64,000 nucleotides of DNA, taken from the IMG/VR virus record IMGVR_UViG_3300021400_000095; one strand, 5' to 3'. Shown here one piece after another: positions 11,224 through 49,825 of this stretch (position 1 is the stretch's first letter; each line of letters opens with the position of its first letter). The DNA is from a virus (Duplodnaviria; Caudoviricetes). The position numbers and the translations under genes are program-made. The notes beneath the pieces are model-generated. The model saw only the letters and a list, made by a program, of their open reading frames with translations, was not told the origin of the DNA and ran no database searches.

Positions 11224-11240
11224 ATCAAAAATCATGCCAA
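11224..11240 (-). promoter_or_regulatory. sigma54-like -24/-12 box
   Basis: TTGGCATGATTTTTGAT. Confidence 0.65.
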
Positions 11241-11293
11241 AAAGAAAAAGTCCCCAACAAAAATTGTTAGGGACTACAAAATTTGTTTAACAA

Positions 11294-11689
11294 TTAAAAA
11301 GTGTCACCAGTAATCCTCTTGACATATTCCTTATTGTGGGCTTCACAATTCTCAGCCTTTTCAATAAAGTTTGCCTTAAGTGGTGCAAGACTTTCCATGG
11401 TGTCAATTACAGAATTCCACCTCCTGATAAGTTCATTCTTCACAAGCCTATAGGCCCTACCTTCAGCCTTTGCCCTTGCAACTTGCTTACCCTTCTCCAA
11501 ACTATACTTGTCATCTGGAGAACACTTAGCAACAGCCTTGACATTCATGTAGCAGTTACCAAAAAGTTCATAAAACTTCTCAGGTGCATCAAGGCAAACA
11601 TTAACCTCAGCAGTAACATTGTCACCATTAAAGTAATAATTAGTGTTAAACACAGTCATCTTAACATTACTCTTGTCAAAATTCATCAT
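11294..11689 (-). CDS. phage hypothetical protein
   Basis: AKCSPDDKYSLEKGKQVARAKAE motif; biased codon use. Confidence 0.7.
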   Translation of the reverse strand: MMNFDKSNVKMTVFNTNYYFNGDNVTAEVNVCLDAPEKFYELFGNCYMNVKAVAKCSPDDKYSLEKGKQVARAKAEGRAYRLVKNELIRRWNSVIDTMESLAPLKANFIEKAENCEAHNKEYVKRITGDTF

Positions 11690-11749
11690 AATATAAATGT
11701 TTTAAAAGTTAATAATATTTTTTTTTTCAATTTGTTTTATCTATATCTT

Positions 11750-11766
11750 ATCAAAAATCATGCCAA
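11750..11766 (-). promoter_or_regulatory. sigma54-like -24/-12 box
   Basis: TTGGCATGATTTTTGAT. Confidence 0.65.
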
Positions 11767-11775
11767 AATTTTATT

Positions 11776-12144
11776 TTAAATCAATTTTTCTAAACAATAT
11801 TTAATACCTGCTTCACAAGCTTCTTCATAGGTATCCTGAATAGGAATATTGTCTCCAAACTTTTCAGCACAAGTCCAATCTTCCAGTGTTATGACTGTTG
11901 GGTTCCAATCACCTTCTGATGGGTCAACATCAACATGTAACTTATGTACCTCTCTCAGCCACTTCATTGCCATTTGAAGTGTAGGTGCATCAAGGTATCT
12001 TTCAGGATTTCTTGACCTATCAGTTATATTATAATCACCAACAATTTTATCACTGATAAAAAATTGTTTATCTGTGTTCCAATTAAACCCCTTCTCTTTC
12101 AGGAGTTTAGCTGTTTCAAAACTTACATAATCTTCTGTAATCAT
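11776..12144 (-). CDS. family A cassette protein, copy 1
   Basis: MITEDYVSFETAKLLKEKGF / PTLQMAMKWLRE / YEEACEAxIKYCLExLI. Confidence 0.85.
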   Translation of the reverse strand: MITEDYVSFETAKLLKEKGFNWNTDKQFFISDKIVGDYNITDRSRNPERYLDAPTLQMAMKWLREVHKLHVDVDPSEGDWNPTVITLEDWTCAEKFGDNIPIQDTYEEACEAGIKYCLEKLI

Positions 12145-12147
12145 AAT

Positions 12148-12537
12148 CTAAATCAAATTTTTAAGACAATATTTAATAGCAGCTTCACAGGCTTCCTCAT
12201 AAGAAAAATAGAAGGTTTTATCATTTTCATCACCCTTAGAATCTATATAATCCACTCCATTTTCCAATATCTTTGTGATAATATACATCCACCCTAAAGC
12301 ATTTGCAAAATAAAGCCAATGAATATCAAGATTTATGTGAATATTATAATTTTCCCTCAGCCACTTCATGACCATTTGTAGGGTTGGACAATAAATTGGG
12401 AAAAAGTTGCTTGGAACTACATATGCTGATTCCATTTCTATTCCTTTTTCAGTATAGAATGTGTGCATCTTCCCTTCAAACCCCTTTTCTTTTAAGAGTT
12501 TTGCTGTTTCAAAACTTACATAATCTTCTGTTATCAT
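12148..12537 (-). CDS. family A cassette protein, copy 2
   Basis: Same three blocks; start set at MITED. Confidence 0.85.
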   Translation of the reverse strand: MITEDYVSFETAKLLKEKGFEGKMHTFYTEKGIEMESAYVVPSNFFPIYCPTLQMVMKWLRENYNIHINLDIHWLYFANALGWMYIITKILENGVDYIDSKGDENDKTFYFSYEEACEAAIKYCLKNLI

Positions 12538-12981
12538 AATTAAATCAAATTTTCTATACAATATTTAATAGCAGCTTCACAAGCATCTTTGAACATCCAA
12601 TCAAAAGATGTGTAGTTTTCTCTTTTATATTTCCCATCAAAACCAAGTACAGAGTAGGCATAATGTGGGTTTCCAATAAGGTCAATGCTCATCTTTAACT
12701 CAATGAAAAGTTTATGCATTTCCCACAACCACTTCATTGCCATTTGAAGAGTTGGGCAAGCAATAAGATGCATATCTCCTTCATGCCTCTTATGATATAT
12801 CATTTCTCCCACAACACAACCCCTTGGTTTGCCATCCCCAACAAAATAGTTTACAGATGTATTTTCATCAAACCCCTTCTCTTTTAATAGTTTTGCTGTT
12901 TCAAAGCCAACATAATCTTCAGTTATCATAATTAAATCAAATTTTCTATACAATATTTAATAGCAGCTTCACAAGCATCTT
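12530..12981. repeat. 60-bp perfect direct repeat spanning gene junctions (12530-12589, 12922-12981)
   Basis: gttatcataattaaatcaaattttctatacaatatttaatagcagcttcacaagcatctt twice. Confidence 0.9.
12540..12929 (-). CDS. family A cassette protein, copy 3
   Basis: Same three blocks; start set at MITED. Confidence 0.85.
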   Translation of the reverse strand: MITEDYVGFETAKLLKEKGFDENTSVNYFVGDGKPRGCVVGEMIYHKRHEGDMHLIACPTLQMAMKWLWEMHKLFIELKMSIDLIGNPHYAYSVLGFDGKYKRENYTSFDWMFKDACEAAIKYCIENLI

Positions 12982-13306
12982 CATAAGTTATATAACCATC
13001 ATCTTTTGATACCACAAAATTACCATCTTTATATACATCAAATTGGTAATTATCACAAGAATAATCCCCATAAGGATAGATAGCAACATGAATCTTATGT
13101 ACTTCCCTCAACCACTTCATAGCCAATTGAAGAGAGCATACTGCTATAACTTCATCATCAGAATTGTACCCATATCCAGTTCCTGGATTAAGTCTTTTGA
13201 ATATGCCATTTATATATACACCTCTGAATGAATCATATGGAATAATAAATCCTTTCTCTGTTAGGAGTTTGGCTATCTCATAACTAATGTAATCTTCTGT
13301 AACCAT
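12932..13306 (-). CDS. family A cassette protein, copy 4
   Basis: MVTEDYISYEIAKLL / SLQLAMKWLRE / YEDACEAAIKYCIENLI. Confidence 0.85.
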   Translation of the reverse strand: MVTEDYISYEIAKLLTEKGFIIPYDSFRGVYINGIFKRLNPGTGYGYNSDDEVIAVCSLQLAMKWLREVHKIHVAIYPYGDYSCDNYQFDVYKDGNFVVSKDDGYITYEDACEAAIKYCIENLI

Positions 13307-13308
13307 AA

Positions 13309-13701
13309 TCAAATCAAATTTTCAAGACAATATTTTATTGCAGATTCTGCTGCTTCTTCATAGGAAGTATAGTATTCTCTTACATAATCATCTGGTAACA
13401 TATTCTTTCCAGAAGTAGTATAATCTAAAGACATATAATAAATCTGAAAATATATGGTAGTGTGTGGTTGGAGCAAAAGGGATGTTGCATATTGGATTTC
13501 AACAAACAAATTATGTTCCTCTCTTAACCACTTCATTGCCATTTGGAGTGTTGGGGCAGATATATAATCCTTACCCCTATGGTTATATGTACAATACCCC
13601 CAATATTCACCATTGCTACTGTAATATCCACAATACTCATCAAACCCTTTCTCTTTCAATAGTTTGGCAGTTTCAAAACTTATATAATCTTCAGTAATCA
13701 T
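13309..13701 (-). CDS. family A cassette protein, copy 5
   Basis: Same three blocks. Confidence 0.85.
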   Translation of the reverse strand: MITEDYISFETAKLLKEKGFDEYCGYYSSNGEYWGYCTYNHRGKDYISAPTLQMAMKWLREEHNLFVEIQYATSLLLQPHTTIYFQIYYMSLDYTTSGKNMLPDDYVREYYTSYEEAAESAIKYCLENLI

Positions 13702-13826
13702 ATCTGTTCTTCTTTATACATTTCTTTATATGCTTTATATATGGTGCATGTCTTACATTTCTCTTTTATTGGATTACATCTTACATTACACCAATATTTT
13801 GCCATTATATATTCTGCTTTTGTCAT
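13698..13826 (-). CDS. 42-aa four-Cys microprotein inside the family A array
   Basis: MTKAEYIMAKYWCNVRCNPIKEKCKTCTIYK...; stop overlaps next ATG (ATGA). Confidence 0.6.
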   Translation of the reverse strand: MTKAEYIMAKYWCNVRCNPIKEKCKTCTIYKAYKEMYKEEQI

Positions 13827-13828
13827 AT

Positions 13829-14275
13829 CTAAATCAAATTTTCTAGACAATATTTAATAGCTGCTTCACAGGCTTGTTCATAAGTAAGAAATAGTTCTTT
13901 ACTCATTTTTGAATAAGTGTCATCCATCAAACTCTCCACAAACCAATTATATCCAACAACAGCAGGTTCCCAATCACCATATTGTACCTCAACATCTTTC
14001 CATACACCAAGGGCATAAATGTTGAGACCTTGTACATCCCTCAACCACTTCATTGCCATTTGAAGGGTTGGTGCAGAAATCATAATTGGACTCCATTCAC
14101 ATTCTGAATTAGTGTAAGCAAGTATCTGCTCACCATATCCTTCACTACAAAAAATTCCAAGTGAAGATACAAGCTGTAACTCTCCATCATGATAGACAGA
14201 AATACATCTTTCATTAAACCCCTTTTCTTTCAAAAGTTTTGCTGTTTCAAAACTTACATAATCTTCAGTAATCAT
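13829..14275 (-). CDS. family A cassette protein, copy 6
   Basis: Same three blocks; start set at MITED. Confidence 0.85.
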   Translation of the reverse strand: MITEDYVSFETAKLLKEKGFNERCISVYHDGELQLVSSLGIFCSEGYGEQILAYTNSECEWSPIMISAPTLQMAMKWLRDVQGLNIYALGVWKDVEVQYGDWEPAVVGYNWFVESLMDDTYSKMSKELFLTYEQACEAAIKYCLENLI

Positions 14276-14301
14276 ACAAATCTTATTAGTAAAAACACAA
14301 A

Positions 14302-14514
14302 CTAAACAATAAATAAAAGTGGAAATGTGTACAAAAACAGTATTAATACAGACTCTGCTGCATCTTTCCATGTCTCTTTTATTCTTTTTTTTTGAGATGT
14401 TCCTTTTATCCAACAGGTATCATCTTTTACATCTTTAAAATAATGTATAAATGTAGCAATAAAAAAAACCAATAATAAAACAAAATATAACAAAGCAAAA
14501 TGCCAAAAATTCAT
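14302..14514 (-). CDS. small two-TM membrane protein
   Basis: Two hydrophobic stretches. Confidence 0.6.
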   Translation of the reverse strand: MNFWHFALLYFVLLLVFFIATFIHYFKDVKDDTCWIKGTSQKKRIKETWKDAAESVLILFLYTFPLLFIV

Positions 14515-14517
14515 ATC

Positions 14518-14937: not shown

Positions 14938-14938
14938 A

Positions 14939-15339: not shown

Positions 15340-15346
15340 ATCTAAA

Positions 15347-15655
15347 TTATACTATTTTTCCTGTTAATTCAAATATTTTATTCTTTTGTTCTTCAGTTGG
15401 GTTATGCCCTTTTTCTATCACCCAACCAATATCATCATAACCACCTGTTGCATAATTAATTAATGTTGTATATCTCACCCATCCAAGTGATTCAAGTGCT
15501 GCTGTTAAAGAACCATGCATTCTATCAAGTTCATCTATTTCCTCAATATCAAGACCTAACTTTTCTTCCATGATTCTCCAAGCATCTTGCCCATGATTCC
15601 ACTTTCCAGAGCAATAAATTACTTCACCATAAGGAGATAACCAACAATCTTTCAT
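15347..15655 (-). CDS. phage hypothetical protein
   Basis: WLSPxG...H...LESLGWVR pattern. Confidence 0.7.
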   Translation of the reverse strand: MKDCWLSPYGEVIYCSGKWNHGQDAWRIMEEKLGLDIEEIDELDRMHGSLTAALESLGWVRYTTLINYATGGYDDIGWVIEKGHNPTEEQKNKIFELTGKIV

Positions 15656-15685: not shown

Positions 15686-15702
15686 TACAAATTTCATGCC
15701 AA
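15686..15702 (-). promoter_or_regulatory. sigma54-like -24/-12 box
   Basis: TTGGCATGAAATTTGTA. Confidence 0.55.
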
Positions 15703-17505: not shown

Positions 17506-18231
17506 TTAAAATACCTCCCTATTTCCAAATTTATAAACAATTTCACCAAATCCTTCCTTTCTCCTTCTAAGTTCATTCAAGGTATCAGCACAAGGATTCA
17601 TATAACATTCAAATTCCATTGGAAATGAAAATCTCTTTAATCTGTCAGGATTATTATAATCAAGATTATTGGTCTTAATTAATGATGTATAATATTCATT
17701 ATCTGGATTATTCAAATCAACATCATCTGATGTTGCCTTTCCAACAATATCACCATTTCTATTAACATAATATGGTGGATTATCAGGGTCTTTAATCAAA
17801 ACACTATCTTGATTATACTTTCCACATAATTGAATTGCCAAAAGTTTTAATTTTGAAAAATCATCTATTTCTCCTGTTTTCTTCAAATGATTAAAGATAA
17901 TAAATGATGGTTCATAACTATCAACAATACCATCAGTACCATGATAGCCACCATATACAGGGAAATAACCATAGTCACAAGCCTTTAAATCATTAATAAG
18001 GCTTTTTGTGTTCTTATTATTAACATCATTAGGCTGGCCAGTTCTATTGGCTGAAACAATTACATAACCATCATTTCCATGCTTGTTAATAATTCTTGAC
18101 AATGTTTCCTCATTGAGTTTTTGCAAAGGATATTCATTGTCAATATTATATAATTCCTTGAAAATGGTTCTTCCATCAACTGCTTCACCAATTCTTTCCA
18201 TTAAATTCTTTATTTCATTTAAATGTCCCAT
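17506..18231 (-). CDS. phage hypothetical protein
   Basis: IVSANR...YGGY...ExSF...KYNQDSVL pattern. Confidence 0.7.
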   Translation of the reverse strand: MGHLNEIKNLMERIGEAVDGRTIFKELYNIDNEYPLQKLNEETLSRIINKHGNDGYVIVSANRTGQPNDVNNKNTKSLINDLKACDYGYFPVYGGYHGTDGIVDSYEPSFIIFNHLKKTGEIDDFSKLKLLAIQLCGKYNQDSVLIKDPDNPPYYVNRNGDIVGKATSDDVDLNNPDNEYYTSLIKTNNLDYNNPDRLKRFSFPMEFECYMNPCADTLNELRRRKEGFGEIVYKFGNREVF

Positions 18232-18245
18232 ATATTTTAATTTAA

Positions 18246-19019
18246 TTAGTTTTTATCTCTCCAAAAGCAATAAAGACAATTATTTCCACAAGGTTTTGGT
18301 TTGTCTTTAATTAATTCTGTTTTATTTTTTGCACATCCACAATGTGTTCTTGCCTCCTTGTTGCCTTCAAGTTTTATTTTATCAGTTAAACCAAGAATAT
18401 CAACATCAATTTGTGATAAACATGGTGTTGTCTTAAATGTCATTCTACTGAAGTCATAATTATATGTGATAGGTGGTTCACCACACATTTCAAGTTGCAA
18501 ACCATATTCATCACAAACTCTTCTTACTTCACTAAATGACTTTTTAATCATTTCCTTATCAGCATGAAATGTTTCATATGGTAATTCAATGTTTTCAGCA
18601 TGAAACCTTTCTTTAACATGATTATACATATCAAGAAAAGAAATTCTTATTCTTTTAAAACCAAGTGCTGAAAATAATTCAATTACATCAGTTGCTGTTT
18701 TTGTTCCTTTTTCAGTTGGAACAATGGGGTCAACTCTTAATACCATTTGTTCAACAGGAAATCCTTTTTCAATTAATTTTTTACATTGATTAAATGACCA
18801 TTCCTTTTTAGGTACAAGTGGTTCTATTTTACTGCCACCCATGCCAGTCACAGTGCAATGTAATATACATTTATCTTTATTTTCAACAAGTTTATCAATA
18901 AGTTTATCAGTCAATCTTTTTGTAATAATCAGATTTCCATCATATAACCTATCAAATATTTCAAGATGAAAGCATGGGTCTGATATTTCTGTTGTTCCAA
19001 ATTTTACAATATCACTCAT
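18246..19019 (-). CDS. DUF1848-like (radical SAM / SPL-related) Fe-S protein
   Basis: IITK, LRVDPI, ISFLD, CGE, C-terminal CGC...CGNNCLYCFW. Confidence 0.75.
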   Translation of the reverse strand: MSDIVKFGTTEISDPCFHLEIFDRLYDGNLIITKRLTDKLIDKLVENKDKCILHCTVTGMGGSKIEPLVPKKEWSFNQCKKLIEKGFPVEQMVLRVDPIVPTEKGTKTATDVIELFSALGFKRIRISFLDMYNHVKERFHAENIELPYETFHADKEMIKKSFSEVRRVCDEYGLQLEMCGEPPITYNYDFSRMTFKTTPCLSQIDVDILGLTDKIKLEGNKEARTHCGCAKNKTELIKDKPKPCGNNCLYCFWRDKN

Positions 19020-23420: not shown

Positions 23421-23684
23421 TTAATAAGTATCACCAGGGTCACTGTCTTTAACTTCAATGTAATTTGCATCATTCTCATCTAAATGAATTAAATCAAAAT
23501 TGATGCATGGAATTGTTATTTTTGAATCACAATTTGTACATTCTAAAACAACATTATTAGAATCAAAGTCTTTTAATAACATTGAACCATTTAAACATAT
23601 TGGGCATGAAATTGCATCATGTACAATATTTATAACTTGCCCATTCTTTAATGTAATCTTTCTCCTTGTGTTAATGTTTCTCAT
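23421..23684 (-). CDS. zinc-ribbon protein
   Basis: CPIC...CTNC. Confidence 0.7.
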   Translation of the reverse strand: MRNINTRRKITLKNGQVINIVHDAISCPICLNGSMLLKDFDSNNVVLECTNCDSKITIPCINFDLIHLDENDANYIEVKDSDPGDTY

Positions 23685-23703: not shown

Positions 23704-23757
23704 CAAAAATATAAAAAATAATTGATTATAACAAACTTATAGCAAAAATTATGCCAA
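23704..23757 (-). promoter_or_regulatory. tandem sigma54-like box (23741-23757) and sigmaA promoter (23704-23735)
   Basis: TTGGCATAATTTTTGCT; TTTG-N20-TATTTTTG. Confidence 0.7.
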
Positions 23758-23816
23758 AAATAAAAAAATTGGGAGATTTGTTTATTAAATCCCCCAATTT
23801 ATATTTAAAAACTACT

Positions 23817-25430
23817 TTACTGTACAAGAAGAAGTACTTCCTGAGTAAGTGCATCCTGAACAACTTCCTCCATTGTAGGCTGAACCTTCTTTCCAGTGTT
23901 AGGGTCAACCTTCACTTCACCTGAAAGGATGAGGCTGATAACAGAACCATCAAATCCTGAGACAAGATACTGTCCACCATGTTCCATGGTTGCAGGTACA
24001 TCCTTGCTTGCACCACTCCTACCTGCACAATACCACCAAACAACCTTGAACTCATCAACCCATTCACTTGGGAAAAATCTCCTAAGTTTTGCCATCATGG
24101 TCTCATAGTTAGTCCTACCACCACAACTATTAAACTGCATGTCACTAACAACAAGAAGAGTCTGTGGAAAGTCTTCAAGTGGCATTTCAGGATGTTCAAC
24201 CCTGGTCTTACAAATCAGGTCAATCAAACTCTGATAATTAGTACCACCCCAAGCAACTTTGCTATTCTGGATTTGGAACCACTTGTCAACAAAACTGTCT
24301 CCCTTAAGTGTCTTAAGAGTTGAAGTGTCATCAAACATTGCCACAACATTGTGGAATGCACCCTTGTTCAATTCTGAGAAATAAATTCCCAAAGAAACAC
24401 AGACATCAAAAGAAGTAAGTCCATTAGGACCACCATTAATAGGGCATGTCATAGAACCTGAGGTGTCTAGTGCACAAAGCACATTACCATTAATTGCACC
24501 ATTATTCTTAGATGCAGTTTCAATAAGATTCTTGAACTGCTTGTCAATGGTAATCTTTGTTACATCAGTAACTTCACCATAACTAGGCAACTTCATAGCA
24601 AGTTCAAATGGATAACCATTAAACTTAGCAACAGGCTGTTCCATAAGCCACTTAATATAACTGTTCTTAAGGTTGTGATTAGTAAGGAACTTTCCACTCA
24701 CAAGATTAAGAAGAGCCTTACCAGGAATAGTATTCCACTTAATGTTAGAATAGTTCCTTGCACAAATGGTCCTCTGGAATTCATGTGCCTTACCTGTTGA
24801 CTTGAACTCTCTATAGTCCTTCATAGACCAACCAACATACTTAGCAAAATCCTTTGCAAGCTGATTGGTAGACTTAGCCCAATCAGTAGTACAAAGCTTG
24901 TTACTCCTGATTCTAGGCATATACTTCTTAACAAGGTCCCTATGATTATCATCATTGATACCAAGAGCAATGACATCAAAGAACTTTTCCTTATCCAAGG
25001 AATCATCCATTGAAAGAAGCACCCAAAGGTCCTTCCAAGAACCAACAACAGGGAGAAGCCAAAGATTCCTATAGAATTCATCAGCATGATACCTTGCAAT
25101 CCAAAGGAGTCTCTTGAAAGATTCATCCTTTGCACCCTGTCCCTTCTGAACCTTTTCAGTCTTATCACCACCAATGATATTAGACTGTCTGGTAATCATT
25201 CTAAGGTAAAAAGGAAACCTGAGGGCATTGACAGGATTTTCACCCCAAAGAGTGGCCTGTTCAGCCCAAACAGTGTTAATGTCCCTACCTCTTGCAGTAC
25301 CTGCATGAGCAAACTGGTCAAGAAGTGCAGAACCTGCACTTGCATATGAAACTGCACCATTTTCAGTCCTTGCACCATTAGCACCAGCACCAATTGTGTT
25401 CACCTTAATAAAACTATTCATATTTTCCAT
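23817..25430 (-). CDS. DUF2828-like TROVE/vWA protein
   Basis: TENGA, GQG, GSWKDL, MIDAS DTSGSM, WGGTNY, VVSDMQF. Confidence 0.85.
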   Translation of the reverse strand: MENMNSFIKVNTIGAGANGARTENGAVSYASAGSALLDQFAHAGTARGRDINTVWAEQATLWGENPVNALRFPFYLRMITRQSNIIGGDKTEKVQKGQGAKDESFKRLLWIARYHADEFYRNLWLLPVVGSWKDLWVLLSMDDSLDKEKFFDVIALGINDDNHRDLVKKYMPRIRSNKLCTTDWAKSTNQLAKDFAKYVGWSMKDYREFKSTGKAHEFQRTICARNYSNIKWNTIPGKALLNLVSGKFLTNHNLKNSYIKWLMEQPVAKFNGYPFELAMKLPSYGEVTDVTKITIDKQFKNLIETASKNNGAINGNVLCALDTSGSMTCPINGGPNGLTSFDVCVSLGIYFSELNKGAFHNVVAMFDDTSTLKTLKGDSFVDKWFQIQNSKVAWGGTNYQSLIDLICKTRVEHPEMPLEDFPQTLLVVSDMQFNSCGGRTNYETMMAKLRRFFPSEWVDEFKVVWWYCAGRSGASKDVPATMEHGGQYLVSGFDGSVISLILSGEVKVDPNTGKKVQPTMEEVVQDALTQEVLLLVQ

Positions 25431-25489: not shown

Positions 25490-25567
25490 CAAATATACAA
25501 ACAAAATTTTAATATCACAAATTTATTTGATGTTTTTTTCTCTTTTATATAACAAAAACCATGCCAA
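25490..25567 (-). promoter_or_regulatory. tandem sigma54-like box (25551-25567) and sigmaA promoter (25490-25521)
   Basis: TTGGCATGGTTTTTGTT; TTTG-N20-TATATTTG. Confidence 0.7.
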
Positions 25568-26140: not shown

Positions 26141-26593
26141 TTATTCAGTTTTATACATTCCATCAGGTGCTTCTATAGCAAGTCCTTTTTCAATTAAACC
26201 CCTATAATCAAAATGATGTGCAAGAAGCCAATCAACTTCATCAACATTAAAATCAAGCCCATGAGTATAAAAATGCTGTAACTCATCATACTCAAATTTT
26301 TCATCTGAAGTCATACTTGACATTGGTCTAAGATAAGGTTTAATATTTTCTATCTCCACATATTCATCAAAATCAAAGCAATATACCAAATCACTTTCAA
26401 TGTCAATTTCAGTTATTTTACTGTCACCATGTCTTAAATCAGTACATATTACACTATATGGCAACCCTCCACAAAGGACTTTTAGTAATAATTGTTTTTC
26501 TTCCTGTGTCATATTACAAAACATTCTTTTATATTCTTTCTGTAGTTCTTCATTTTCATGACCATAGAATGAAAGGATGTCAAACTTCCCCAT
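26141..26593 (-). CDS. family B cassette protein, copy 4 (core starts at 26512)
   Basis: Three blocks plus a possible 27-aa extension. Confidence 0.8.
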   Translation of the reverse strand: MGKFDILSFYGHENEELQKEYKRMFCNMTQEEKQLLLKVLCGGLPYSVICTDLRHGDSKITEIDIESDLVYCFDFDEYVEIENIKPYLRPMSSMTSDEKFEYDELQHFYTHGLDFNVDEVDWLLAHHFDYRGLIEKGLAIEAPDGMYKTE

Positions 26594-26595
26594 AT

Positions 26596-27027
26596 TTATT
26601 CAGTTTTATACATTCCTTCAGGTGCTTCAAGAGCAAGTCCTTGTTCAATTAAACCACAATAGTCAAAATGATGTGCATTAAGCCAATCAAATACTTTAAT
26701 GACACAATAATGTGGTACTTCTGAAAGATAAAATTCAAGTGTTTTGCAATTATCCCATTCTACCAATTCAAGTTGGTCATATTGCAATTCTGTTACAGTT
26801 GTCAAATTTATAAATTCTTCCTCAGTCATACTTGATATTGGTCTAAGATAAGGTTTAATATCTTCAACCTTGTACTTATATTTACCATTGTCAAATTCAA
26901 GGCAATAAACCTTATAAGGAGATACTGACAAAAGTTTCTTGGCCTGTCCAAGTCTATTACAAATCACCCCATAAGGCAATCTTGCACAAAGGTCTTTCAA
27001 CAACAATTGTTTTTCTTCTTGTGTCAT
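26596..27027 (-). CDS. family B cassette protein, copy 5
   Basis: Three conserved blocks. Confidence 0.85.
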   Translation of the reverse strand: MTQEEKQLLLKDLCARLPYGVICNRLGQAKKLLSVSPYKVYCLEFDNGKYKYKVEDIKPYLRPISSMTEEEFINLTTVTELQYDQLELVEWDNCKTLEFYLSEVPHYCVIKVFDWLNAHHFDYCGLIEQGLALEAPEGMYKTE

Positions 27028-27031
27028 TTTC

Positions 27032-27292
27032 TTACTTCTTCAAATAGTTAATAAAGTTTTCAATAATATAGTTTGACATGTCATCAGGATGATTAAAACC
27101 AAGTTTTTTAAGAGCAATCTTTAAATCTGTTTCTTCATCTTCCCATAACTTCCAGTTATTCCTAATCCATCTTCCTAAAGTGTGATGAACAGAAATTGCA
27201 CCATTTTCAATAAGATATTCTTTATCTTCATTAGTAATCATTGAATTTAGCAAATCAATGCATTCATCAATGTTATTAGGTATTTTGTCCAT
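27032..27292 (-). CDS. DUF6794-like protein
   Basis: HHTLGRWIRNNWKLW...HPDDMS. Confidence 0.7.
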   Translation of the reverse strand: MDKIPNNIDECIDLLNSMITNEDKEYLIENGAISVHHTLGRWIRNNWKLWEDEETDLKIALKKLGFNHPDDMSNYIIENFINYLKK

Positions 27293-27304
27293 ATTAGTAT
27301 TTGT

Positions 27305-27913
27305 TTAATCAGTATATCCTTTGTCTTCCCACCATTCTTTATGTAGATATTTTTCAAGTGTCCAATCATTATCATAAAGTGGATTTCTTACAAATTTATA
27401 GTTAGTTTGTCCATCATGATGTTCTTTTGGAAAATCCATTTCAGTAATATCAATACCATCAATAAGAGCATGGAGAATTGTCAATATTTTTTCTGTGGTT
27501 TCAATAAATTTACTAAGATACTTTTGTTTATAAAAAGCATTATCCCAGTTGCTTTTCAATGCCCACTTGATTCCTCTTAAATCATGATATGCTTCATTAA
27601 TAAGAGCAATATTTGGATTAGCCCAAATTTCAGCATTATCTTTAAAATGAAAATATCCATCTGGACTATTACTATCTTTATAGTGAAGCACTCTATCTCT
27701 TACATATCTGTAATAAAGATAAATTCCATTATTTGAAAGTTCATATGTGTCATACACATATCTTCCAATCAGTTTAATAATGTCATCATCATATAAATCA
27801 AAATATTCATCCAAAAGATATTTTTCTGGAGATTTTCTAAACTCATGATTTTTAATTTTATCATGCAATACTCTCAATTTGTTAAGAGTTTCTTGTGATA
27901 TTGGTTTAAACAT
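27305..27913 (-). CDS. hypothetical protein
   Basis: 202-aa ORF. Confidence 0.65.
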   Translation of the reverse strand: MFKPISQETLNKLRVLHDKIKNHEFRKSPEKYLLDEYFDLYDDDIIKLIGRYVYDTYELSNNGIYLYYRYVRDRVLHYKDSNSPDGYFHFKDNAEIWANPNIALINEAYHDLRGIKWALKSNWDNAFYKQKYLSKFIETTEKILTILHALIDGIDITEMDFPKEHHDGQTNYKFVRNPLYDNDWTLEKYLHKEWWEDKGYTD

Positions 27914-27921
27914 ATATTTAG

Positions 27922-28458
27922 TTAATTATTAAATCCCATACATTCTCTATTAAAACAAATAATAGGATTGTTCCTATCAATATATCCATGTTCAATAATA
28001 TTCCTAATAGAAGAAGGTTCATCAAAAACACATCTACTTAGAATATTACACATTAAAATATTAGATGCATCAATTAAATTTTGGTCTAATGGAAGATTAT
28101 ACCATGCTGCTTCACTAAGTTCACTGACAAACATTCCTGTTGCAAAAGCATTTAAGTTATACTTTTCAGCAAAAACATTTGCATTACACCAAAAGCAAAT
28201 AACAGGTTTATCTCTAAAAAATTGCAAATCTTCTGAGGTTATAACATACCTGTTACCAATCTTATCAAGAAGTCCATATTCAGTACCATGTCCAAGAAAA
28301 ACAATCCTGTCAGCATCTGCAAGTGCTGCTCTTATTGAGTGACTTGAAATTCTTGTACCTTCAAGTACAGTTATACCATCATTGTTTAAATAATCATTAT
28401 AAACAATGTTTAAAAACTCAGTTGAAGGGTCTGTTGGATGTATAAACAATGTTCTCAT
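27922..28458 (-). CDS. hypothetical protein, possible clan CD cysteine-protease fold
   Basis: IVFLGHG ... ICFWCNA. Confidence 0.5.
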   Translation of the reverse strand: MRTLFIHPTDPSTEFLNIVYNDYLNNDGITVLEGTRISSHSIRAALADADRIVFLGHGTEYGLLDKIGNRYVITSEDLQFFRDKPVICFWCNANVFAEKYNLNAFATGMFVSELSEAAWYNLPLDQNLIDASNILMCNILSRCVFDEPSSIRNIIEHGYIDRNNPIICFNRECMGFNN

Positions 28459-28490
28459 ATTAATTAATATATTATCTTTCTCCTTTTAAT

Positions 28491-28507
28491 ATCAAAAATC
28501 ATGCCAT
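28491..28507 (-). promoter_or_regulatory. sigma54-like -24/-12 box
   Basis: ATGGCATGATTTTTGAT. Confidence 0.6.
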
Positions 28508-28516
28508 GATTTTATT

Positions 28517-28957
28517 TTAAATCAAATTTTCAAGGCAATATTTGATTGCTGCTTCACAGGCATCTTCATAAGAAGGATAGTTAACTGCTTTATGTGGAAG
28601 ATAGGTTTTTATCTCTGTATCATGGTCTTGGACAATCTCTTTTAGGGAAGTTATTTGAATATGCCAGCCTAATCTGAAATCATAACCAACATCACAGTGA
28701 AGATTATGCCATTTTCTCAGCCACTTCATGACCATTTGGAGGGTTGGTGCTGACATTTTTCTACTTGAAATATTAATGTGAACATCTAATTCATTATTTT
28801 CTATAGATGCATTGTGATTTTCTCTTATTGGGCTATAACATAAAGTCCTTGTAACTGAATCTTCAATATAGTAACAATTTGTATTACAATCAAACCCCTT
28901 CTCTTTCAGGAGTTTGGCTGTTTCAAAACTTACATAATCTTCAGAAATCATATTCAT
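28517..28957 (-). CDS. family A cassette protein, copy 7
   Basis: MISEDYVSFETAKLL / APTLQMVMKWLR / YEDACEAAIKYCLENLI. Confidence 0.85.
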   Translation of the reverse strand: MNMISEDYVSFETAKLLKEKGFDCNTNCYYIEDSVTRTLCYSPIRENHNASIENNELDVHINISSRKMSAPTLQMVMKWLRKWHNLHCDVGYDFRLGWHIQITSLKEIVQDHDTEIKTYLPHKAVNYPSYEDACEAAIKYCLENLI

Positions 28958-29169
28958 TATGCTTCAAAATCATCTAAATATACAAACTCTCCAAATAATT
29001 CATCTGGCCCATTTTCATCATACCTAATCCCATAGACAACCACACAAGGATATTTTTCAGGGCCTACCCAAAAATCAGACACAACCCTTCCATGCTCAGG
29101 AATTATTCCAGTATGGTCATCTACAAAAGAGACAAAATCATCATAACTGTTAAGTAAAATCTTATTCAT
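28957..29169 (-). CDS. small hypothetical protein
   Basis: PEKYPCVVV...FVYLDDF. Confidence 0.65.
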   Translation of the reverse strand: MNKILLNSYDDFVSFVDDHTGIIPEHGRVVSDFWVGPEKYPCVVVYGIRYDENGPDELFGEFVYLDDFEA

Positions 29170-29172
29170 ATC

Positions 29173-29568
29173 TCATTCATTTTTATACATTCCATATGGT
29201 GCTTCAAGAGCAAGACCTTTTTCAATTAGATGATGAAAGTCAAAATGGTGGCTGTTAAACCAATCATGAAGTTCAGAAATTTTTTCTTCCAGCCTTTCAT
29301 CACAACTTTCTGCAATATTGTTTTTGTAAATTTGCCATTCTTTATCTTCTTCCTCAGTCATACTTGACATTGGCCTGAGATAAGGCTTAATACTGTTAAT
29401 TCTGAATGGGTCAGAATCAACATTTAGATAGATTTCTTCTCCATCAACTCCACATAGTAGGCATTTTTCTGGTTTACCATAAGCACCAGGATTTAACTGC
29501 ACAAGAGTGTCATAGGGAATCCTTGCACAAAGGTCTTTGAGTAGTAGTTCTTTTTCTTCCTGTGTCAT
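29173..29568 (-). CDS. family B cassette protein, copy 6
   Basis: Three conserved blocks. Confidence 0.85.
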   Translation of the reverse strand: MTQEEKELLLKDLCARIPYDTLVQLNPGAYGKPEKCLLCGVDGEEIYLNVDSDPFRINSIKPYLRPMSSMTEEEDKEWQIYKNNIAESCDERLEEKISELHDWFNSHHFDFHHLIEKGLALEAPYGMYKNE

Positions 29569-29599: not shown

Positions 29600-29616
29600 A
29601 TCAAAAATCATACCAA
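29600..29616 (-). promoter_or_regulatory. sigma54-like -24/-12 box
   Basis: TTGGTATGATTTTTGAT. Confidence 0.6.
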
Positions 29617-30326: not shown

Positions 30327-30343
30327 AACAAAAACCATGCCAA
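30327..30343 (-). promoter_or_regulatory. sigma54-like -24/-12 box
   Basis: TTGGCATGGTTTTTGTT. Confidence 0.6.
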
Positions 30344-43234: not shown

Positions 43235-44338
43235 TTAGTCAACATCAGCACACTCAACAACAACATATGCTGCCCTGCTTGCTTCAGGAAGTGCATTGAT
43301 ATCAAGTTCAGTAGAGGTCTTGACATTGGTTGCACCAAAGGTCTTTGCAAGATATTCCTTAACAACCTTTGCTCTCTCACTTGCAAGATAATTGTTCCTA
43401 CTCTTAGAGCCAGTCTTGGTATCAGCAGAACCAATTACCTGAACAGGACTATTCTTATCAAAAGACTTAACAAAAGTATCAAGCTTTGCCTTCTCAACAG
43501 CACTCAAAGTTGCACTACCAATAGGGAAAGAAACTACAGTTGAACCACCTTCAATAACAGGAACCTCCTTAACAACTTCCTTGACAACTTCCTTCTCAAC
43601 AACAACCTCCTTGACAACAGGCTTCCTACCTTCAAGTTCAGCAATCCTTGCCATTGCAGCATCATAATCTGCCTTACTATAAGCATAGTTATTGGTTACA
43701 AAGTTATGGGAATTAACCCTTCTATTACCAAACTTATAGGTAACACCAACAGTAAGATTAGCAAATGCATTTTCAAACTTAGGGTTGATAACATTATGGT
43801 CACTGACAGCTTCACCCCTATTCATCCAAAGAACAGCAGGTCTTACATTGATTTGCCATGCCCTTGCCTTACCAAGATTAACATTGACCTCAGCAGCAGC
43901 CCTATAGTTAAAGTAATTCCTATCCTTAAGTTCATCAAGGTTGCCATAATCATGTCCCCAACCAATACCAGGAACAGCAACTACCTCAACCCTCCTTGGA
44001 TAACCCTTATATCCACCAAAAAGATTAGAAAGGTTCAACTTACCATTAGCAAGGACACTGTGCTGGTCAACAAAAGTATGAGCACCAGGAGTTCCAAACA
44101 ATGCAGTACCCTCAACACTGAAACCCCAAACAGGAGTTACATAAGTACCAACTTCAAGAGCAGCAGTGGGTCTGGCATTATGTACAAAGTCACTGAAAGA
44201 TGCTGCATTGAGTGCAGAAACAGCACCACCATTAACATTAACATAAGGCATACCAAATGCACCTACATACTCATAATTCTGTGCAGAAGCCATAATTGCA
44301 ATGGCCATAGCTGCAATAATACTAAAAATTTTCTTCAT
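43235..44338 (-). CDS. OmpA-family outer membrane protein
   Basis: Signal peptide MKKIFSIIAAMAIAIMASA; barrel ending VGVTYKFG; GSADTKTG...NNYLASERA. Confidence 0.88.
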   Translation of the reverse strand: MKKIFSIIAAMAIAIMASAQNYEYVGAFGMPYVNVNGGAVSALNAASFSDFVHNARPTAALEVGTYVTPVWGFSVEGTALFGTPGAHTFVDQHSVLANGKLNLSNLFGGYKGYPRRVEVVAVPGIGWGHDYGNLDELKDRNYFNYRAAAEVNVNLGKARAWQINVRPAVLWMNRGEAVSDHNVINPKFENAFANLTVGVTYKFGNRRVNSHNFVTNNYAYSKADYDAAMARIAELEGRKPVVKEVVVEKEVVKEVVKEVPVIEGGSTVVSFPIGSATLSAVEKAKLDTFVKSFDKNSPVQVIGSADTKTGSKSRNNYLASERAKVVKEYLAKTFGATNVKTSTELDINALPEASRAAYVVVECADVD

Positions 44339-44405: not shown

Positions 44406-44471
44406 ATCAAAAATCATGCCACAATCATGTTTAGTTTTGCAAATATATATTAAAAAATTTAAAAAACCAAA
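44406..44471 (-). promoter_or_regulatory. tandem sigmaA promoter (44440-44471) and sigma54-like box (44406-44422)
   Basis: TTTG-N20-TATATTTG; GTGGCATGATTTTTGAT. Confidence 0.65.
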
Positions 44472-44604: not shown

Positions 44605-45603
44605 TTAATCTCCATTTTCAGCAATTTTATTTACACAATCAGATATTGCAGATGTCCAATGTCTGATATATGATTTATTATTATTTAATGATAAAAGTTT
44701 ATCAAGGCATAAAACACTATATTCTGGCCTGATAATATTATCAAAAGGTTTTTCTCTTGGTGCAATTTGATTATTGCCATTTACAATGCCTTCAATGAAT
44801 TTTGCCATATCATACCAAGAAGCAAGTCCTAAGTTAGCAAAATTTAATATATGAGCATAATTAATTGGGTCAAAACCATTGTTCCAATTGTTATTTATTT
44901 CATTTGTAATAAAGCATCCATCTTCCATTTCAATTTTATTAATAATGAAATTTGCCAAATCCATTGCATATGTTGGTGAACCAATCTGTGTTAAAACAAC
45001 TTCAAGATTTTCACCATTGATTATTTTGTTATATATTGTCTTTACAAAATTTTTACCATATTCAGAAAATAACCAAGAAACAATAATTACAACAAATCTT
45101 GGTGTTTGTGGGATTTTCTTCATTTCATTGAATAATTCCCTTATCCCAAGCAATTTACTTAAACCATATTTATTGATTTTTTCATTGGCATATATTGCAA
45201 AATCTTCATTCTTATATGACCAATGTATTTCATTTTCTTTAATTGGCTTATTTTCATATGTTCTATACATATAATCAGTACCAAAATGTACTAAGAATAT
45301 ATCATATTTATTACATAATATGGCAAGATTTTTAACAGCATCCCTATTAATTAATAGTGCCTTTTTAAAACCATCTGTTGTTTCAGCATTTTTTACATCA
45401 GTATAAGCAGCACAATTAATAATTATTTCAATATCTTCATTGTCTTGAAGATATTTTTCCATTTGTTTAATATTAGTTATATCAAAATCAGTTCTATTGG
45501 TAAAAATATATTGGTCAATGTAAGGACTGCTTTCAATAGCCTTCCTTAAACATTGACCTAATTGACCATTTGAACCTGTAATTAAAATTTTTCCTTTAAT
45601 CAT
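44605..45603 (-). CDS. rmlD: dTDP-4-dehydrorhamnose reductase
   Basis: GSNGQLG, NCAAYTDV, TDY, YGLSK, GSPTYAMDLA, RPEYSVL. Confidence 0.88.
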   Translation of the reverse strand: MIKGKILITGSNGQLGQCLRKAIESSPYIDQYIFTNRTDFDITNIKQMEKYLQDNEDIEIIINCAAYTDVKNAETTDGFKKALLINRDAVKNLAILCNKYDIFLVHFGTDYMYRTYENKPIKENEIHWSYKNEDFAIYANEKINKYGLSKLLGIRELFNEMKKIPQTPRFVVIIVSWLFSEYGKNFVKTIYNKIINGENLEVVLTQIGSPTYAMDLANFIINKIEMEDGCFITNEINNNWNNGFDPINYAHILNFANLGLASWYDMAKFIEGIVNGNNQIAPREKPFDNIIRPEYSVLCLDKLLSLNNNKSYIRHWTSAISDCVNKIAENGD

Positions 45604-45605
45604 GA

Positions 45606-46514
45606 TTAGATAGTTTGTACAAATTCACTTTCTATATTGAATAGACTGTTGGTTGTAAATATTTTCTTAACAGTACCATTTTGAAGTCTTTCAAGTAAAA
45701 TACTCTTATCAGCATCAAGAACACTCTTTTCACAATGTGTTGCATAGGCATAAATCTCTTTTGCACCAAGTTCCTTTAATTTATCAGCACTGATTGAAAA
45801 TGTTCCACCATAAGAAATAATATCATCAACCATCAGAACAGTTTTACCTTCCAAAACTTTTACATTTTTTTTGTCAGATTTAAGTTCATAACCATTCCTA
45901 TCATTAATAGTTAAACCAAGAATTTTTCCTGTTGCCCAGTCTCTGTTTTTTATACCATAAAGAACCTCTCTATTACCAAACAAATTAGTATCACAATATC
46001 TTTTCATTGCACCATTATCTGGAAAGTAAATAACAAGTCTTTCAATCATTTTTACACATCCATCATTACTATGCTCTTGATTAAGATTAACATTAAATTC
46101 AAGGTATTCCATCACTCTCTTAACATAATCTTCCCAAGGAAGGATTGTTACATTATTAATAAGAGCAGGAGTAACATTTGAATGAGGGTCCAAAATGTAA
46201 ACATTATTTAAATTAAGTTCATTAATAAACTTTGCAAAATATTTAAGAGTAAATACTTCATCATTTGCTTTAGTTCTATCCATTCTGGCATTAGGGAAAT
46301 ACAATACATAAAGATTTATAATTGCATTTTTCTTTTTATCTCTTAAATGATTTACAGCATACCACAAAGTCATACATTCCTCTTCATTCTCATATGCCCA
46401 TGTAATAGTAAATAGATTTGGAATTTCTTGCACAAAACCAGTATCAAGTTTAAAAAATTGAGTGTTATCTGGAAAATGCTTAGTACTTATTTTTTCATTA
46501 TTAACAGAAATCAT
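45606..46514 (-). CDS. phage-type ribose-phosphate pyrophosphokinase-like protein
   Basis: FPD, YFPNARMDR, DPHS, PDNGAMKRY, VDDIISYGGTF, YATH. Confidence 0.85.
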   Translation of the reverse strand: MISVNNEKISTKHFPDNTQFFKLDTGFVQEIPNLFTITWAYENEEECMTLWYAVNHLRDKKKNAIINLYVLYFPNARMDRTKANDEVFTLKYFAKFINELNLNNVYILDPHSNVTPALINNVTILPWEDYVKRVMEYLEFNVNLNQEHSNDGCVKMIERLVIYFPDNGAMKRYCDTNLFGNREVLYGIKNRDWATGKILGLTINDRNGYELKSDKKNVKVLEGKTVLMVDDIISYGGTFSISADKLKELGAKEIYAYATHCEKSVLDADKSILLERLQNGTVKKIFTTNSLFNIESEFVQTI

Positions 46515-46525
46515 ACCTTATCAAT

Positions 46526-46942: not shown

Positions 46943-47366
46943 TTTTTACATTATTAATTCCTTGATAAATTAAAGCATTGATAGCATTAATAAATGAATT
47001 ATCATTAAAAATACTACTTTGTAAATTTTTCATAAACAAATTAGCAAACATGCTTAAAGCCATTTTTTGAATACTACCTTCTTCAGTAAGATATTCTTTG
47101 ATTTTTTTCTTTACTTCATCAAATATTGGATTGCAATCAACATTATTAATAATTTTAGTAAATATTGATGATGGCTCATTTGAAATTTCTCCCCAATGAT
47201 TTCTTTTTTCAACCAAAAAAAGTTTTTTCATTTCTTCATCATTTGCAAGATACTCACTCATTGCCTTTACAATAATATCATGTAATTCATCTTTTGAGAA
47301 AGCATTTAATTCATTATCCAAAACATCTTTGAATCTTGTTTCATCTAAATTAACCTCTATCTTCAT
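46926..47366 (-). CDS. hypothetical protein
   Basis: ORF in operon. Confidence 0.6.
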   Translation of the reverse strand: MKIEVNLDETRFKDVLDNELNAFSKDELHDIIVKAMSEYLANDEEMKKLFLVEKRNHWGEISNEPSSIFTKIINNVDCNPIFDEVKKKIKEYLTEEGSIQKMALSMFANLFMKNLQSSIFNDNSFINAINALIYQGINNVKNDGRY

Positions 47367-47379
47367 ATTTTTATATAAT

Positions 47380-47643
47380 TTATACCAAGTTATATTTTAC
47401 AATAGGCCCATTATTAATATATGGAATAGCCCTGATTGTATTGTAATCAATAAACTCCATTGCATCCTCAACAGTCATACCATCTTCTTCAACAAGACAA
47501 TCTACCATTTTATCATAATCATAAATTACTCTATTGTCTTGTGAAATACCAATAAATGCATTGGCATAATCTGGATTTTCAAAAACAACTGCTTCCTCAG
47601 TACCATTATCTATTAATAATGTTTTTAATTCATCTAATGTCAT
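47380..47643 (-). CDS. phage hypothetical protein
   Basis: AFIG...IYDYDKM...DAMEFIDYN; sigmaA promoter 47661-47692. Confidence 0.7.
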   Translation of the reverse strand: MTLDELKTLLIDNGTEEAVVFENPDYANAFIGISQDNRVIYDYDKMVDCLVEEDGMTVEDAMEFIDYNTIRAIPYINNGPIVKYNLV

Positions 47644-47680
47644 AACAAATTATTTTTTTACAAATATATGATTTCTTTTT

Positions 47681-48835
47681 TTAATTAACAAACTTTTTCA
47701 TAACATAACAATTGTTAACAATAATCCATGAAATAATTGTATTAATTAATATTACAATAATAAACAATGCAATATATTCACCATTTGTCAATTGAACCTT
47801 AATATATTCAAAATCTTTGAATTCTTTTCTTTTCCAATTGTTTAGGTTTTGAATTAGCCATTCACCATATTCTGATATATTAAGTTTTTCATTATTCCTA
47901 TATTTTTCCATTGTACTAATTGAAAGAAATGGTTCATCTTCCCATGAAAAAGAATAACACCAATCAACTGTTCTATCAGAATTAACCCCAAAACAAACTA
48001 TTAATTCATTTTTATTCCCACCTTCCCAATATGCCTGTTGTTTAAATGCTTGCTCAATACCAACATTGGATGGAAATAAAAGAACAAACAATCTGAATTG
48101 TTTTAACTTTCCATAATAGCCATTAATGTATTTAATAGTTTCAATTTCCTCTTGGTTTACATTTATACTATTAGTAAGAATTGTATTTTGGTCTAAATTA
48201 TCTATTTTTGGATATTCAAACAAGTTAAGTTCTTTTGCTTGTTTTTTTGTAATTTTTTCAAATTTAAATATTGAATTTGATTTCCTGACTTTGTTTTTGT
48301 AATAATGTGTTGTTGTAATTGTCCTAATTGTGTTTCTTGTTTTTGGCCAATAATAATCCTGAGCATCACCATCCTTTCTATAATAATGCCTATGCATATC
48401 AACAAAAACTTTTTGAGGATGATTGAATCTATTTAAAATTTCATTGAATTGTTCTTTGGTTAAGATATGTTCATCTTTACTTAAATTGTCAACATATATC
48501 CAATATTCATTATGATATGCTCTATATGAACAATCATATTCCTCTGTTTTATAAATTGTATTACCATCACTATCTTCACCAACTGCAACCTCTCTGGTAC
48601 AAGTTTGTTCTATCCATTCATCCCAATCATCATAATGCCTTATCTTTTCAATATATCCACCAAAATATTCAATATCATTAGTTTTTGAACTTTTAAATAT
48701 CCAAATGAATGACAATGTAATTATTATAGAACTACATATTAGTATAATGTACTCAAAAAAAGTTACTTTTTCCTTATAAAAATTTAAAAGGAAAAAAGCA
48801 ACAATAAAAGGTATAAAAAATAAAATGATTTCCAC
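47681..48835 (-). CDS. membrane protein partnered with LemA-like gene
   Basis: N- and C-terminal TM helices; YWEGGNKNE. Confidence 0.7.
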   Translation of the reverse strand: MEIILFFIPFIVAFFLLNFYKEKVTFFEYIILICSSIIITLSFIWIFKSSKTNDIEYFGGYIEKIRHYDDWDEWIEQTCTREVAVGEDSDGNTIYKTEEYDCSYRAYHNEYWIYVDNLSKDEHILTKEQFNEILNRFNHPQKVFVDMHRHYYRKDGDAQDYYWPKTRNTIRTITTTHYYKNKVRKSNSIFKFEKITKKQAKELNLFEYPKIDNLDQNTILTNSINVNQEEIETIKYINGYYGKLKQFRLFVLLFPSNVGIEQAFKQQAYWEGGNKNELIVCFGVNSDRTVDWCYSFSWEDEPFLSISTMEKYRNNEKLNISEYGEWLIQNLNNWKRKEFKDFEYIKVQLTNGEYIALFIIVILINTIISWIIVNNCYVMKKFVN

Positions 48836-48962
48836 TACCTCAGCAAATCAATAAACATTGGAACAAAAGGTAAATACATATCAACAAGCCAATTATATTT
48901 AATGCTATTGAAAGAAAACCTTTCAAACCATATCATGAATTTGTAAAATAAAATCTTCATAA

Positions 48963-49502
48963 TTAAAATAAATTAATATTATCATCAAGTCCTGTTTCCC
49001 TAACAGTTTTTGCTATTGTAGAACTAATTAAAACATATTCAATATGAGACTTGTCCTTGATAAACCACTTTGAAGGATATGTGGAAATAAGAACCTCATG
49101 CTCTCTTACAATATCAATGAGTCTTTCCTGTGACTTTTGAAACTCAGTCCTATAAATCTCAATTGAAGCCATTAAATCTTTATACAATGAGGAATCAAAA
49201 TCTGGATTATCTTCTTGAATCCATTTCATTAAACTCCCATCACCACTTGAATATCTACCACTGATAATTTCAGGATAAATTTCCTTAAAGGCTTCCTTAT
49301 ATTCATTGGAAACCTGTGCTTTTTGCTGAAGGATTTTCCACATTTTGTCATAAACACCTTCAACCTTGTCATACTGAGCAACAGCTTCTTTCCTAAGTCT
49401 AATTTCACTGTTGTTATAACTAAAATAAAGTGAAGCACCAAGTACAACACCAATTCCAATAATAACAAAACAAATTAAGGTAATAATGCCATTCTTTTTC
49501 AT
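48963..49502 (-). CDS. LemA-like membrane-anchored protein
   Basis: N-terminal TM, helical body; sigma54-like box GTGGCATGATTTTTGAA at 49539-49555. Confidence 0.6.
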   Translation of the reverse strand: MKKNGIITLICFVIIGIGVVLGASLYFSYNNSEIRLRKEAVAQYDKVEGVYDKMWKILQQKAQVSNEYKEAFKEIYPEIISGRYSSGDGSLMKWIQEDNPDFDSSLYKDLMASIEIYRTEFQKSQERLIDIVREHEVLISTYPSKWFIKDKSHIEYVLISSTIAKTVRETGLDDNINLF

Positions 49503-49546
49503 AAATATTTTGCTTTTTGTTTATTTAAATGTTAACTCTTCAAAAA

Positions 49547-49825
49547 TCATGCCACATCTTCCTCAAAAACAAAGAAAATGTGATTATCTTCTACAACAAT
49601 TTTTGTAAGAACATAATTTTCAAGTTTAAATCCAGGGCTAATAAATGGTCCACCTGATGGGTCAAATGCTTTAATATCATTTTGCTTTCCAATTACTCTA
49701 TATGTTGCCCAATCATGTTCAGCAACAAAAATATAATAATTATCTTTTACTTTCTTAAAATAGTTCTTGTGCCCATCTCTGTTGACAGGAATTTGAATGA
49801 TGTTTGGTAAATTAGTTTTTTCCAT
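49547..49825 (-). CDS. hypothetical protein
   Basis: FDPSGGPFI; sigmaA promoter 49843-49875. Confidence 0.65.
   Translation of the reverse strand: MEKTNLPNIIQIPVNRDGHKNYFKKVKDNYYIFVAEHDWATYRVIGKQNDIKAFDPSGGPFISPGFKLENYVLTKIVVEDNHIFFVFEEDVA

Follow-up and report, generated by a model that had tools for sequence, protein, structure and literature searches.

The 64,000-nucleotide (nt) record IMGVR_UViG_3300021400_000095, a stretch of DNA from a virus of the Caudoviricetes (Duplodnaviria) that was analysed at its full length and is hereafter called the window, carries ten short minus-strand motifs with the spacing of -24/-12 promoters, the type read by sigma-54 (RpoN). The question raised by these motifs, hereafter called boxes, is which transcription machinery uses them. 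Phage gene programmes are usually ascribed to host sigma-70, to phage sigma factors or to phage polymerases. The reading preferred here, to which a probability of roughly 0.7 is given, is that the sigma-54 holoenzyme of the host, together with a host activator, reads the ten boxes as one of three promoter classes. The phage would thereby probably tie one class of its genes to the sigma-54 stress transcription machinery of its host.

Ten boxes in the window and their counterparts in related phages

A search of the window with the pattern TTGGCATGNTTTTTG, allowing at most two mismatches, gave 12 matches against 2.67 expected, a count that was reached in none of the 100 shuffles used as control. 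Ten of these matches, all on the minus strand, were accepted as boxes, and their alignment gave the consensus tTGGCATGaTTTTTGnTA; the matches at 6781 (plus strand) and 26030 were excluded, the GGC core being absent or the match intragenic. The regular expression TGGCA[CT][GA]N4TTG had 9 matches in the window versus 0.65 in shuffles. Each box is intergenic or overlaps a stop codon, and all ten are co-oriented with the next gene and lie upstream of a minus-strand ATG. The distances from box end to ATG are 28, 62, 32, 58, 122, 34, 33, 30, 69 and 38 nt for the boxes starting at 11226, 11752, 15688, 23743, 25553, 28493, 29602, 30329, 44408 and 49541, respectively, i.e. 28-38 nt in six cases and 28-122 nt overall. 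The preliminary description of this DNA had reported ten minus-strand boxes at gene boundaries before ATG codons, and all of them were recovered; its sites were right, with start positions that were 2 nt too low.

GG (-24/-25) and TTG are present in all ten boxes, with a GG-to-G(C) spacing of exactly 10 bp, and the TGGCA core is found in nine, the box at 29602 having TGGTA. The base after TTG, corresponding to the canonical -12 C, is A in six boxes, T in three and C in one, the only TTGC being that at 23743. The exact spacing and the single retained -12 C, both noted earlier, were thus correct. Information in the alignment is limited to approximately 18 nt and nothing is conserved farther upstream. 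The flanks of the boxes share 35-41 % identity, versus 29 % for random pairs, and the contexts are independent in nine of ten cases, the exception being boxes 11752 and 28493, whose upstream flanks consist of paralogous gene ends. Because the flanks are unrelated, the boxes did not arise by copying of a mobile repeat. Six sites show no further promoter consensus between box and gene, and boxes 11226 and 23743 are each preceded by a strong intrinsic terminator hairpin that ends 8-9 nt before the box. Three boxes (23743, 25553 and 44408) adjoin a complete Bacteroidota sigmaA promoter of the form TTTG-N20-TAnnTTTG, as had been described.

No close relatives of the window were found by megablast of 12 kb against the phage collection. 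The DUF2828/DUF7788 protein of the window matches two IMG/VR contigs, G001 (363 kb, 82 % identity) and G002 (345 kb, 62 % identity), which makes the window part of a megaphage genome. In these complete relatives TGGCA[CT][GA]-N4-TTG occurs 32 times (G001) and 17 times (G002), compared with 4.2 and 2.65 in shuffles, mostly 20-70 nt before co-oriented genes and clustered in particular regions. The relatives' box reads TTTGGCACGgnnnTTGCAA or TTGTAA, i.e. the canonical TGGCACG-N4-TTGC/T of the textbook sigma-54 consensus, and the -12 C is kept in 13 of 32 (G001) and 7 of 17 (G002) boxes. Since the relatives carry 17-32 boxes, the ten boxes belong to a larger regulon and do not define it; of the earlier statement that they define a phage regulon, the gene class is retained and the definition is not. 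The DUF2828 gene of the window has both a box and a sigmaA promoter, its orthologue in G001 a box only and that in G002 a sigmaA promoter only. Such interchange of the box with an ordinary promoter argues that the box is itself a promoter. In G002, two sigma-54-type boxes (190600-190685) are located upstream of a phage sigma-70-family gene (189619-190470, minus strand), an arrangement suggestive of a regulatory cascade that leads from sigma-54 of the host to a sigma factor of the phage.

The window has a G+C content of 29 % and contains only five CpG dinucleotides in 64 kb (812, 8576, 15767, 20836 and 41065), an observed/expected ratio of 0.004 compared with 0.64 in the relatives. The CATG of the boxes is a CpG-free spelling of CACG, as previously proposed, because the window has been purged of CpG and the relatives carry TGGCACG. 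The purge turned CACG into CATG in every box while the rest was kept, which reveals the box positions that are under selective protection. Avoidance of TGCA (observed/expected 0.82) was ruled out as the reason for the lost -12 C. The exact 18-mer box gave only five single matches in IMG/VR, so that close CpG-free relatives were not available. GATC is absent from the 64-kb window and from both relatives of approximately 350 kb, and AGCT and CTAG are also depleted.

Sigma-54 promoters and machinery of the putative host

The host is probably a member of the Bacteroidales: the RmlD gene of the window is nearest to Bacteroidales genes, mostly of Muribaculaceae (34-38 % identity), and the ordinary promoters of the window have the Bacteroidota form. 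All five Bacteroidales genomes tested contain rpoN and two to four genuine activators of sigma-54 (220-244 bits). One Muribaculum genome has 25 TGGCAYR-N4-TTGYW sites versus 3 for a control pattern, among them sites before clpB, groES, grpE, an rpoD-like gene, ftsY, a TolC-like gene and a Bax1-I gene. In Flavobacterium psychrophilum, -24/-12 promoters (motif SM4) mapped by their transcription start sites drive groESL, lon, dnaK, grpE-dnaJ, htpG and clpB (PMC9723704), and chaperone genes of Bacteroidota are enriched for sigma-54 promoters, with groES and grpE of B. thetaiotaomicron being sigma-54 dependent (PMC12316311).

Among 30 groES loci from Bacteroidales genomes, 28 have a ttTGGCAYR-N4-nTG box 64-102 nt upstream of groES. 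Position 14 is G in 27 of these 28 boxes, and the canonical -12 C is replaced by A in 18, is C in 4 and T in 4. The strict pattern TGGCACG-N4-TTGC is near control level in four other Bacteroidales genomes and recovers only 1 of the 30 groES boxes; the -12 element of the host is therefore degenerate. The preliminary description had taken the lost -12 C as a hint of relaxed activator dependence. This does not hold, since most of the groES boxes carry A there as well: the loss is typical of the host and provides no evidence for relaxed dependence.

A weight matrix was built solely from the groES upstream boxes of 28 Bacteroidales genomes. Nine phage boxes are its top nine hits in the window, with 16.3-19.9 bits, which is inside the range of mostly 14-25 bits obtained for the host boxes on their own matrix; the tenth (29602) has 11.4 bits. 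Matrix hits at 20048, within a coding sequence, and at 26030, with TGGAAT, were not accepted as boxes. Comparison with host RpoN motifs, which had been put forward earlier as a check, and the canonical boxes of the relatives both support the -24/-12 assignment originally made.

The phage boxes thus have the same 18-nt form, ttTGGCAYR-N4-nTG(A/C/T)nA, as the heat-shock and envelope-stress promoters of sigma-54 type in Bacteroidota (SM4, PMC9723704; PMC12316311; Bacteroidales groES), with the same GG-to-G spacing, the canonical -12 C likewise replaceable by A or T, and scores in the host range. They differ from the host promoters in that they precede small genes without assigned function, a Ro60-like DUF2828 gene and an OmpA-domain gene, and not chaperone genes. 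Their distance to the ATG is also shorter than that at host groES, mostly 28-38 nt versus about 65-100 nt, all are CpG-free with CATG, and the hairpin element that accompanies many host boxes is absent. In many unrelated Bacteroidales (L160, L162, L165, L174, L176, L177, L180, L182) a near-identical element, TGTCAGAATGTCA-N5-7-TTCTGACA followed by a T-run, was observed 30-140 nt upstream of the sigma-54-type box of groES; this element may represent either a conserved terminator or the site bound by the heat-shock activator.

The enhancer-dependent sigma-54 promoters of Proteobacteria (glnAp2, nifH, pspA) have the consensus YTGGCACGrNNNTTGCW (Barrios et al. 1999, as quoted in PMC9723704). The phage boxes share with them GG and G(C) one helical turn apart, the TGGCA core, a purine after CAYG and a T-tract before the -12 G, and differ from them in the -12 C, which is absent in nine of ten boxes, and in the C at -19, which has become T. 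No activator sites or IHF-like sites were recognised upstream of the phage boxes.

Candidate readers of the boxes

The preliminary description had named host or phage RpoN as the reader, and the host part of this is retained. In G001 and G002, neither Sigma54_DBD nor Sigma54_CBD gave a match above noise, and the RNA polymerase beta subunit was not found. A weak Sigma54_DBD match in G002 (E = 0.089), in a member of a small paralogous 'cassette' gene family, was regarded as chance. The GAFTGA motif occurs in no frame of the two relatives, and the window likewise contains no GAFTGA protein; the search for rpoN and GAFTGA activators that had been suggested earlier was thus negative on both counts within these sequences. 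PF00158 matches in the relatives were rejected as activators, as they are ClpB-like chaperones of 848 and 916 amino acids. An AAA+ protein of 383 amino acids in the window was also rejected, belonging to the classic Afg2/Rpt-like clade and having neither GAFTGA nor a helix-turn-helix motif. The two chaperones are ClpB/ClpC-like with a double AAA+ arrangement (G001 284085-286628, G002 237060-239807), and these phages therefore carry a heat-shock-type protein of their own while apparently borrowing promoters of heat-shock type.

With host sigma-54 as the reader, Bacteroidales RNA polymerase carrying this factor would bind both GG (-24/-25) and TTG (-15 to -13), and the complex would be opened by an AAA+ enhancer-binding activator of the host. 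Transcription is predicted to start approximately 13 nt past the box (+1 being the box start coordinate minus 13), giving leaders of approximately 15-25 nt at six sites. The boxes would be copies of the heat-shock form found in the host order (groES, ttTGGCAYR-N4-nTGA) with CACG respelled as CATG, and expression may follow the stress caused by infection, as the box appears to be modelled on a host heat-shock promoter. The motif, its placement, its conservation in the relatives, its match to host boxes and the lack of sigma-54 and activator genes in those relatives are direct observations; binding of host sigma-54, the acting activator, the timing of expression and any coupling to host stress are what we infer.

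A T-rich stretch from -17 to -14 makes the binding of sigma-54 stronger and can make activation from solution possible. A further-reaching proposal, which we consider doubtful, is that the megaphage clade runs a gene class off copies of host heat-shock sigma-54 promoters without its own sigma-54, enhancer-binding ATPase or visible enhancer. The trigger would then be the proteotoxic or envelope stress of infection, relayed by the host heat-shock activator acting from solution, or else a phage protein, as yet unrecognised, standing in for the AAA+ activator; the latter would be the first natural bypass of a sigma-54 activator.

Several observations weigh against reading by host sigma-54. The host is uncultured and its identity is itself deduced, and activity of the boxes is a prediction from DNA sequence. 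An analysis of k-mers enriched in the sequences preceding the boxes of the window and both relatives revealed no shared enhancer or activator site, only A/T runs and signals of paralogy, and the hairpin accompanying host groES boxes (TGTCA...TGACA) is not enriched at the phage boxes. The position of the box is only partly conserved at orthologues, with the box lost from the OmpA gene of both relatives and, in G002, also from the DUF2828 gene. The search for rpoN and activator genes covered the window, G001 and G002, with approximately 290 kb of the phage's own genome lying outside it, and each of the two relatives codes for two sigma-70-family factors.

The last two points, and the lack of an activator or enhancer for the sigma-54 route in the window and the relatives, would also suit a phage-encoded reader: a sigma-70-family factor, an unrecognised DNA-binding protein or an analogue of sigma-54, the likeness to sigma-54 promoters then being convergent. 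This is nevertheless unlikely. From centre to centre the two conserved blocks are separated by 11-12 bp, a distance at odds with the -35/-10 spacing of factors with regions 2 and 4, and the boxes score like host groES boxes over all 18 positions. The sigma gene of G002 that lies behind two boxes appears to be a target rather than a reader. A more natural client of a phage sigma factor is the motif ACTATTTAT, of which the window has 12 copies versus 2.7 expected (including those at 2223, 9322, 36219, 36293, 39658, 42141, 52872 and 63361) and G001 and G002 have 62 and 60, mostly before genes. Its copies are located 15-36 nt upstream of structural and lysis genes, among them an amidase gene, an 823-amino-acid gene and a 689-amino-acid tail-fibre-like gene, and a phage sigma factor probably reads this motif as a late class. 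The best reading is that the phage clade has three promoter classes, the sigma-54-type boxes, sigmaA-type TTTG-N19-21-TAnnTTTG and ACTATTTAT. The boxes mark a gene class apart from the other two, in agreement with the distinct expression tier proposed in the preliminary description.

Alternatively, host sigma-54 holoenzyme might bind the boxes without any promoter role, being titrated away from host heat-shock genes or forming closed-complex roadblocks or insulators between transcription units. Closed complexes of the sigma-54 holoenzyme are stable without activator, according to a passage of PMC4591121, no enhancer was found, and some boxes lie just past terminators or beside sigmaA promoters. 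This explanation is quite improbable in view of the co-orientation of all ten boxes with the next gene at promoter-like distances, the six sites at which no other promoter consensus separates box and gene, and the substitution of the box for a sigmaA promoter at orthologous genes.

Still less credible is that the box is an unusual Bacteroidota sigmaA promoter with GATTTTTG as its -7 element (TAnnTTTG) and TGGCAT as an upstream extension. In the window copies GATTTTTG does fit TAnnTTTG at 7 of 8 positions, but no conserved -33 TTTG is present upstream of the boxes, a separate and complete sigmaA promoter stands beside the box at three sites, and the relatives conserve GG and TTGC with spacers such as GACC and GTCC, which destroy TAnnTTTG. 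A chance, compositional or repeat-derived motif without function, to which the AT-rich genome and the two boxes adjoining paralogous gene ends might point, is effectively refuted by the shuffles (observed count in 0 of 100), the nine independent contexts, the strictly intergenic location on one strand and the retention of the motif in relatives at 62-82 % protein identity.

Genes downstream of the boxes and significance for the phage

The boxes, terminators and sigmaA-type promoters given below are on the minus strand. The first box, TTGGCATGATTTTTG(ATA) at 11226-11240, precedes a 124-amino-acid gene (10823-11197), with a predicted +1 at approximately 11213, and has an intrinsic terminator hairpin of 12 pairs with a T-run directly upstream (11249-11275). 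The boxes at 11752-11766 and 15688-15702, the latter TTGGCATGAAATTTG(TAG), precede genes of 131 (11294-11689) and 102 amino acids (15347-15655). The box with the sole canonical -12 C, TTGGCATAATTTTTG(CTA) at 23743-23757, is preceded directly by a terminator hairpin of 14 pairs with a T-run (23766-23800) and followed by a tandem sigmaA-type promoter, TTTG-N20-TATTTTTG (23704-23735), between box and ATG. Its gene (23421-23684) leads a co-directional run in which a SAM lyase, whose function is of the anti-restriction type, is found together with a DUF1848 gene, both at 17506-19019. The box at 25553-25567 belongs to the Ro60-like DUF2828/DUF7788 gene (23817-25430), and a sigmaA-type promoter TTTG-N20-TATATTTG (25490-25521) lies between it and the ATG.

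Three further boxes precede genes of 178 amino acids (27922-28458), 131 amino acids (29173-29568) and 82 amino acids (30050-30298). They are ATGGCATGATTTTTG(ATA) at 28493-28507, whose downstream gene has a homologue in G002 that is likewise preceded by a box; the weakest box on the host matrix, TTGGTATGATTTTTG(ATA) at 29602-29616; and that at 30329-30343, in a divergent gap of 57 nt. The OmpA-domain gene (43235-44338) has the box GTGGCATGATTTTTG(ATA) at 44408-44422, and a tandem sigmaA-type promoter, TTTG-N20-TATATTTG (44440-44471), ends 18 nt upstream of this box. The last box (49541-49555) overlaps the stop codon of gene 49547-49858 and precedes a 179-amino-acid membrane-anchored gene (48963-49502). 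The DUF2828 and OmpA labels given earlier were confirmed with Pfam; for 'LemA-like', applied to 48963-49502, Pfam gave no support. An RmlD-like reductase and a PRPP-synthetase-like gene are found at 44605-46514, downstream of the region of this LemA-labelled gene.

Small paralogous 'cassette' gene families with conserved ends, e.g. the C-terminus ...CEAAIKYCLENLI, are present at 11776-14413 and 26141-29568 in the window and at 153-155 kb and 141-165 kb in G002. The boxes at 11752 and 28493 each follow directly after one such gene end.

No publication on sigma-54 promoters of Bacteroidota phages came up in the literature searches, and documented use of sigma-54 is limited to essentially one phage, YuA, which has a genome of approximately 58 kb. 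Passages of PMC5053324 and bioRxiv 10.1101/2023.10.13.562163 that cite Ceyssens et al. (2008) state that the development of this Pseudomonas aeruginosa phage depends on host sigma-54, and they call phage use of sigma-54 rare, with YuA as the example; the latter source also mentions one sigma-54-like start site confirmed with ONT-cappable-seq. YuA is likewise a lytic phage without its own sigma-54, and part of its programme relies on promoters of the host sigma-54 type. Unlike the present phages, a Bacteroidota megaphage clade of approximately 350 kb with tens of boxes of heat-shock class, it is a siphovirus of a proteobacterium with very few such promoters.

If host sigma-54 does read the boxes, giant gut and rumen phages would link part of their programme to the heat-shock circuit of the host, which in Bacteroidota is run by sigma-54. 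This would give a concrete mechanism by which infection and the stress state of the host are coupled, and the boxes would make available a collection of natural sigma-54 promoters that are compact and have no visible enhancer.

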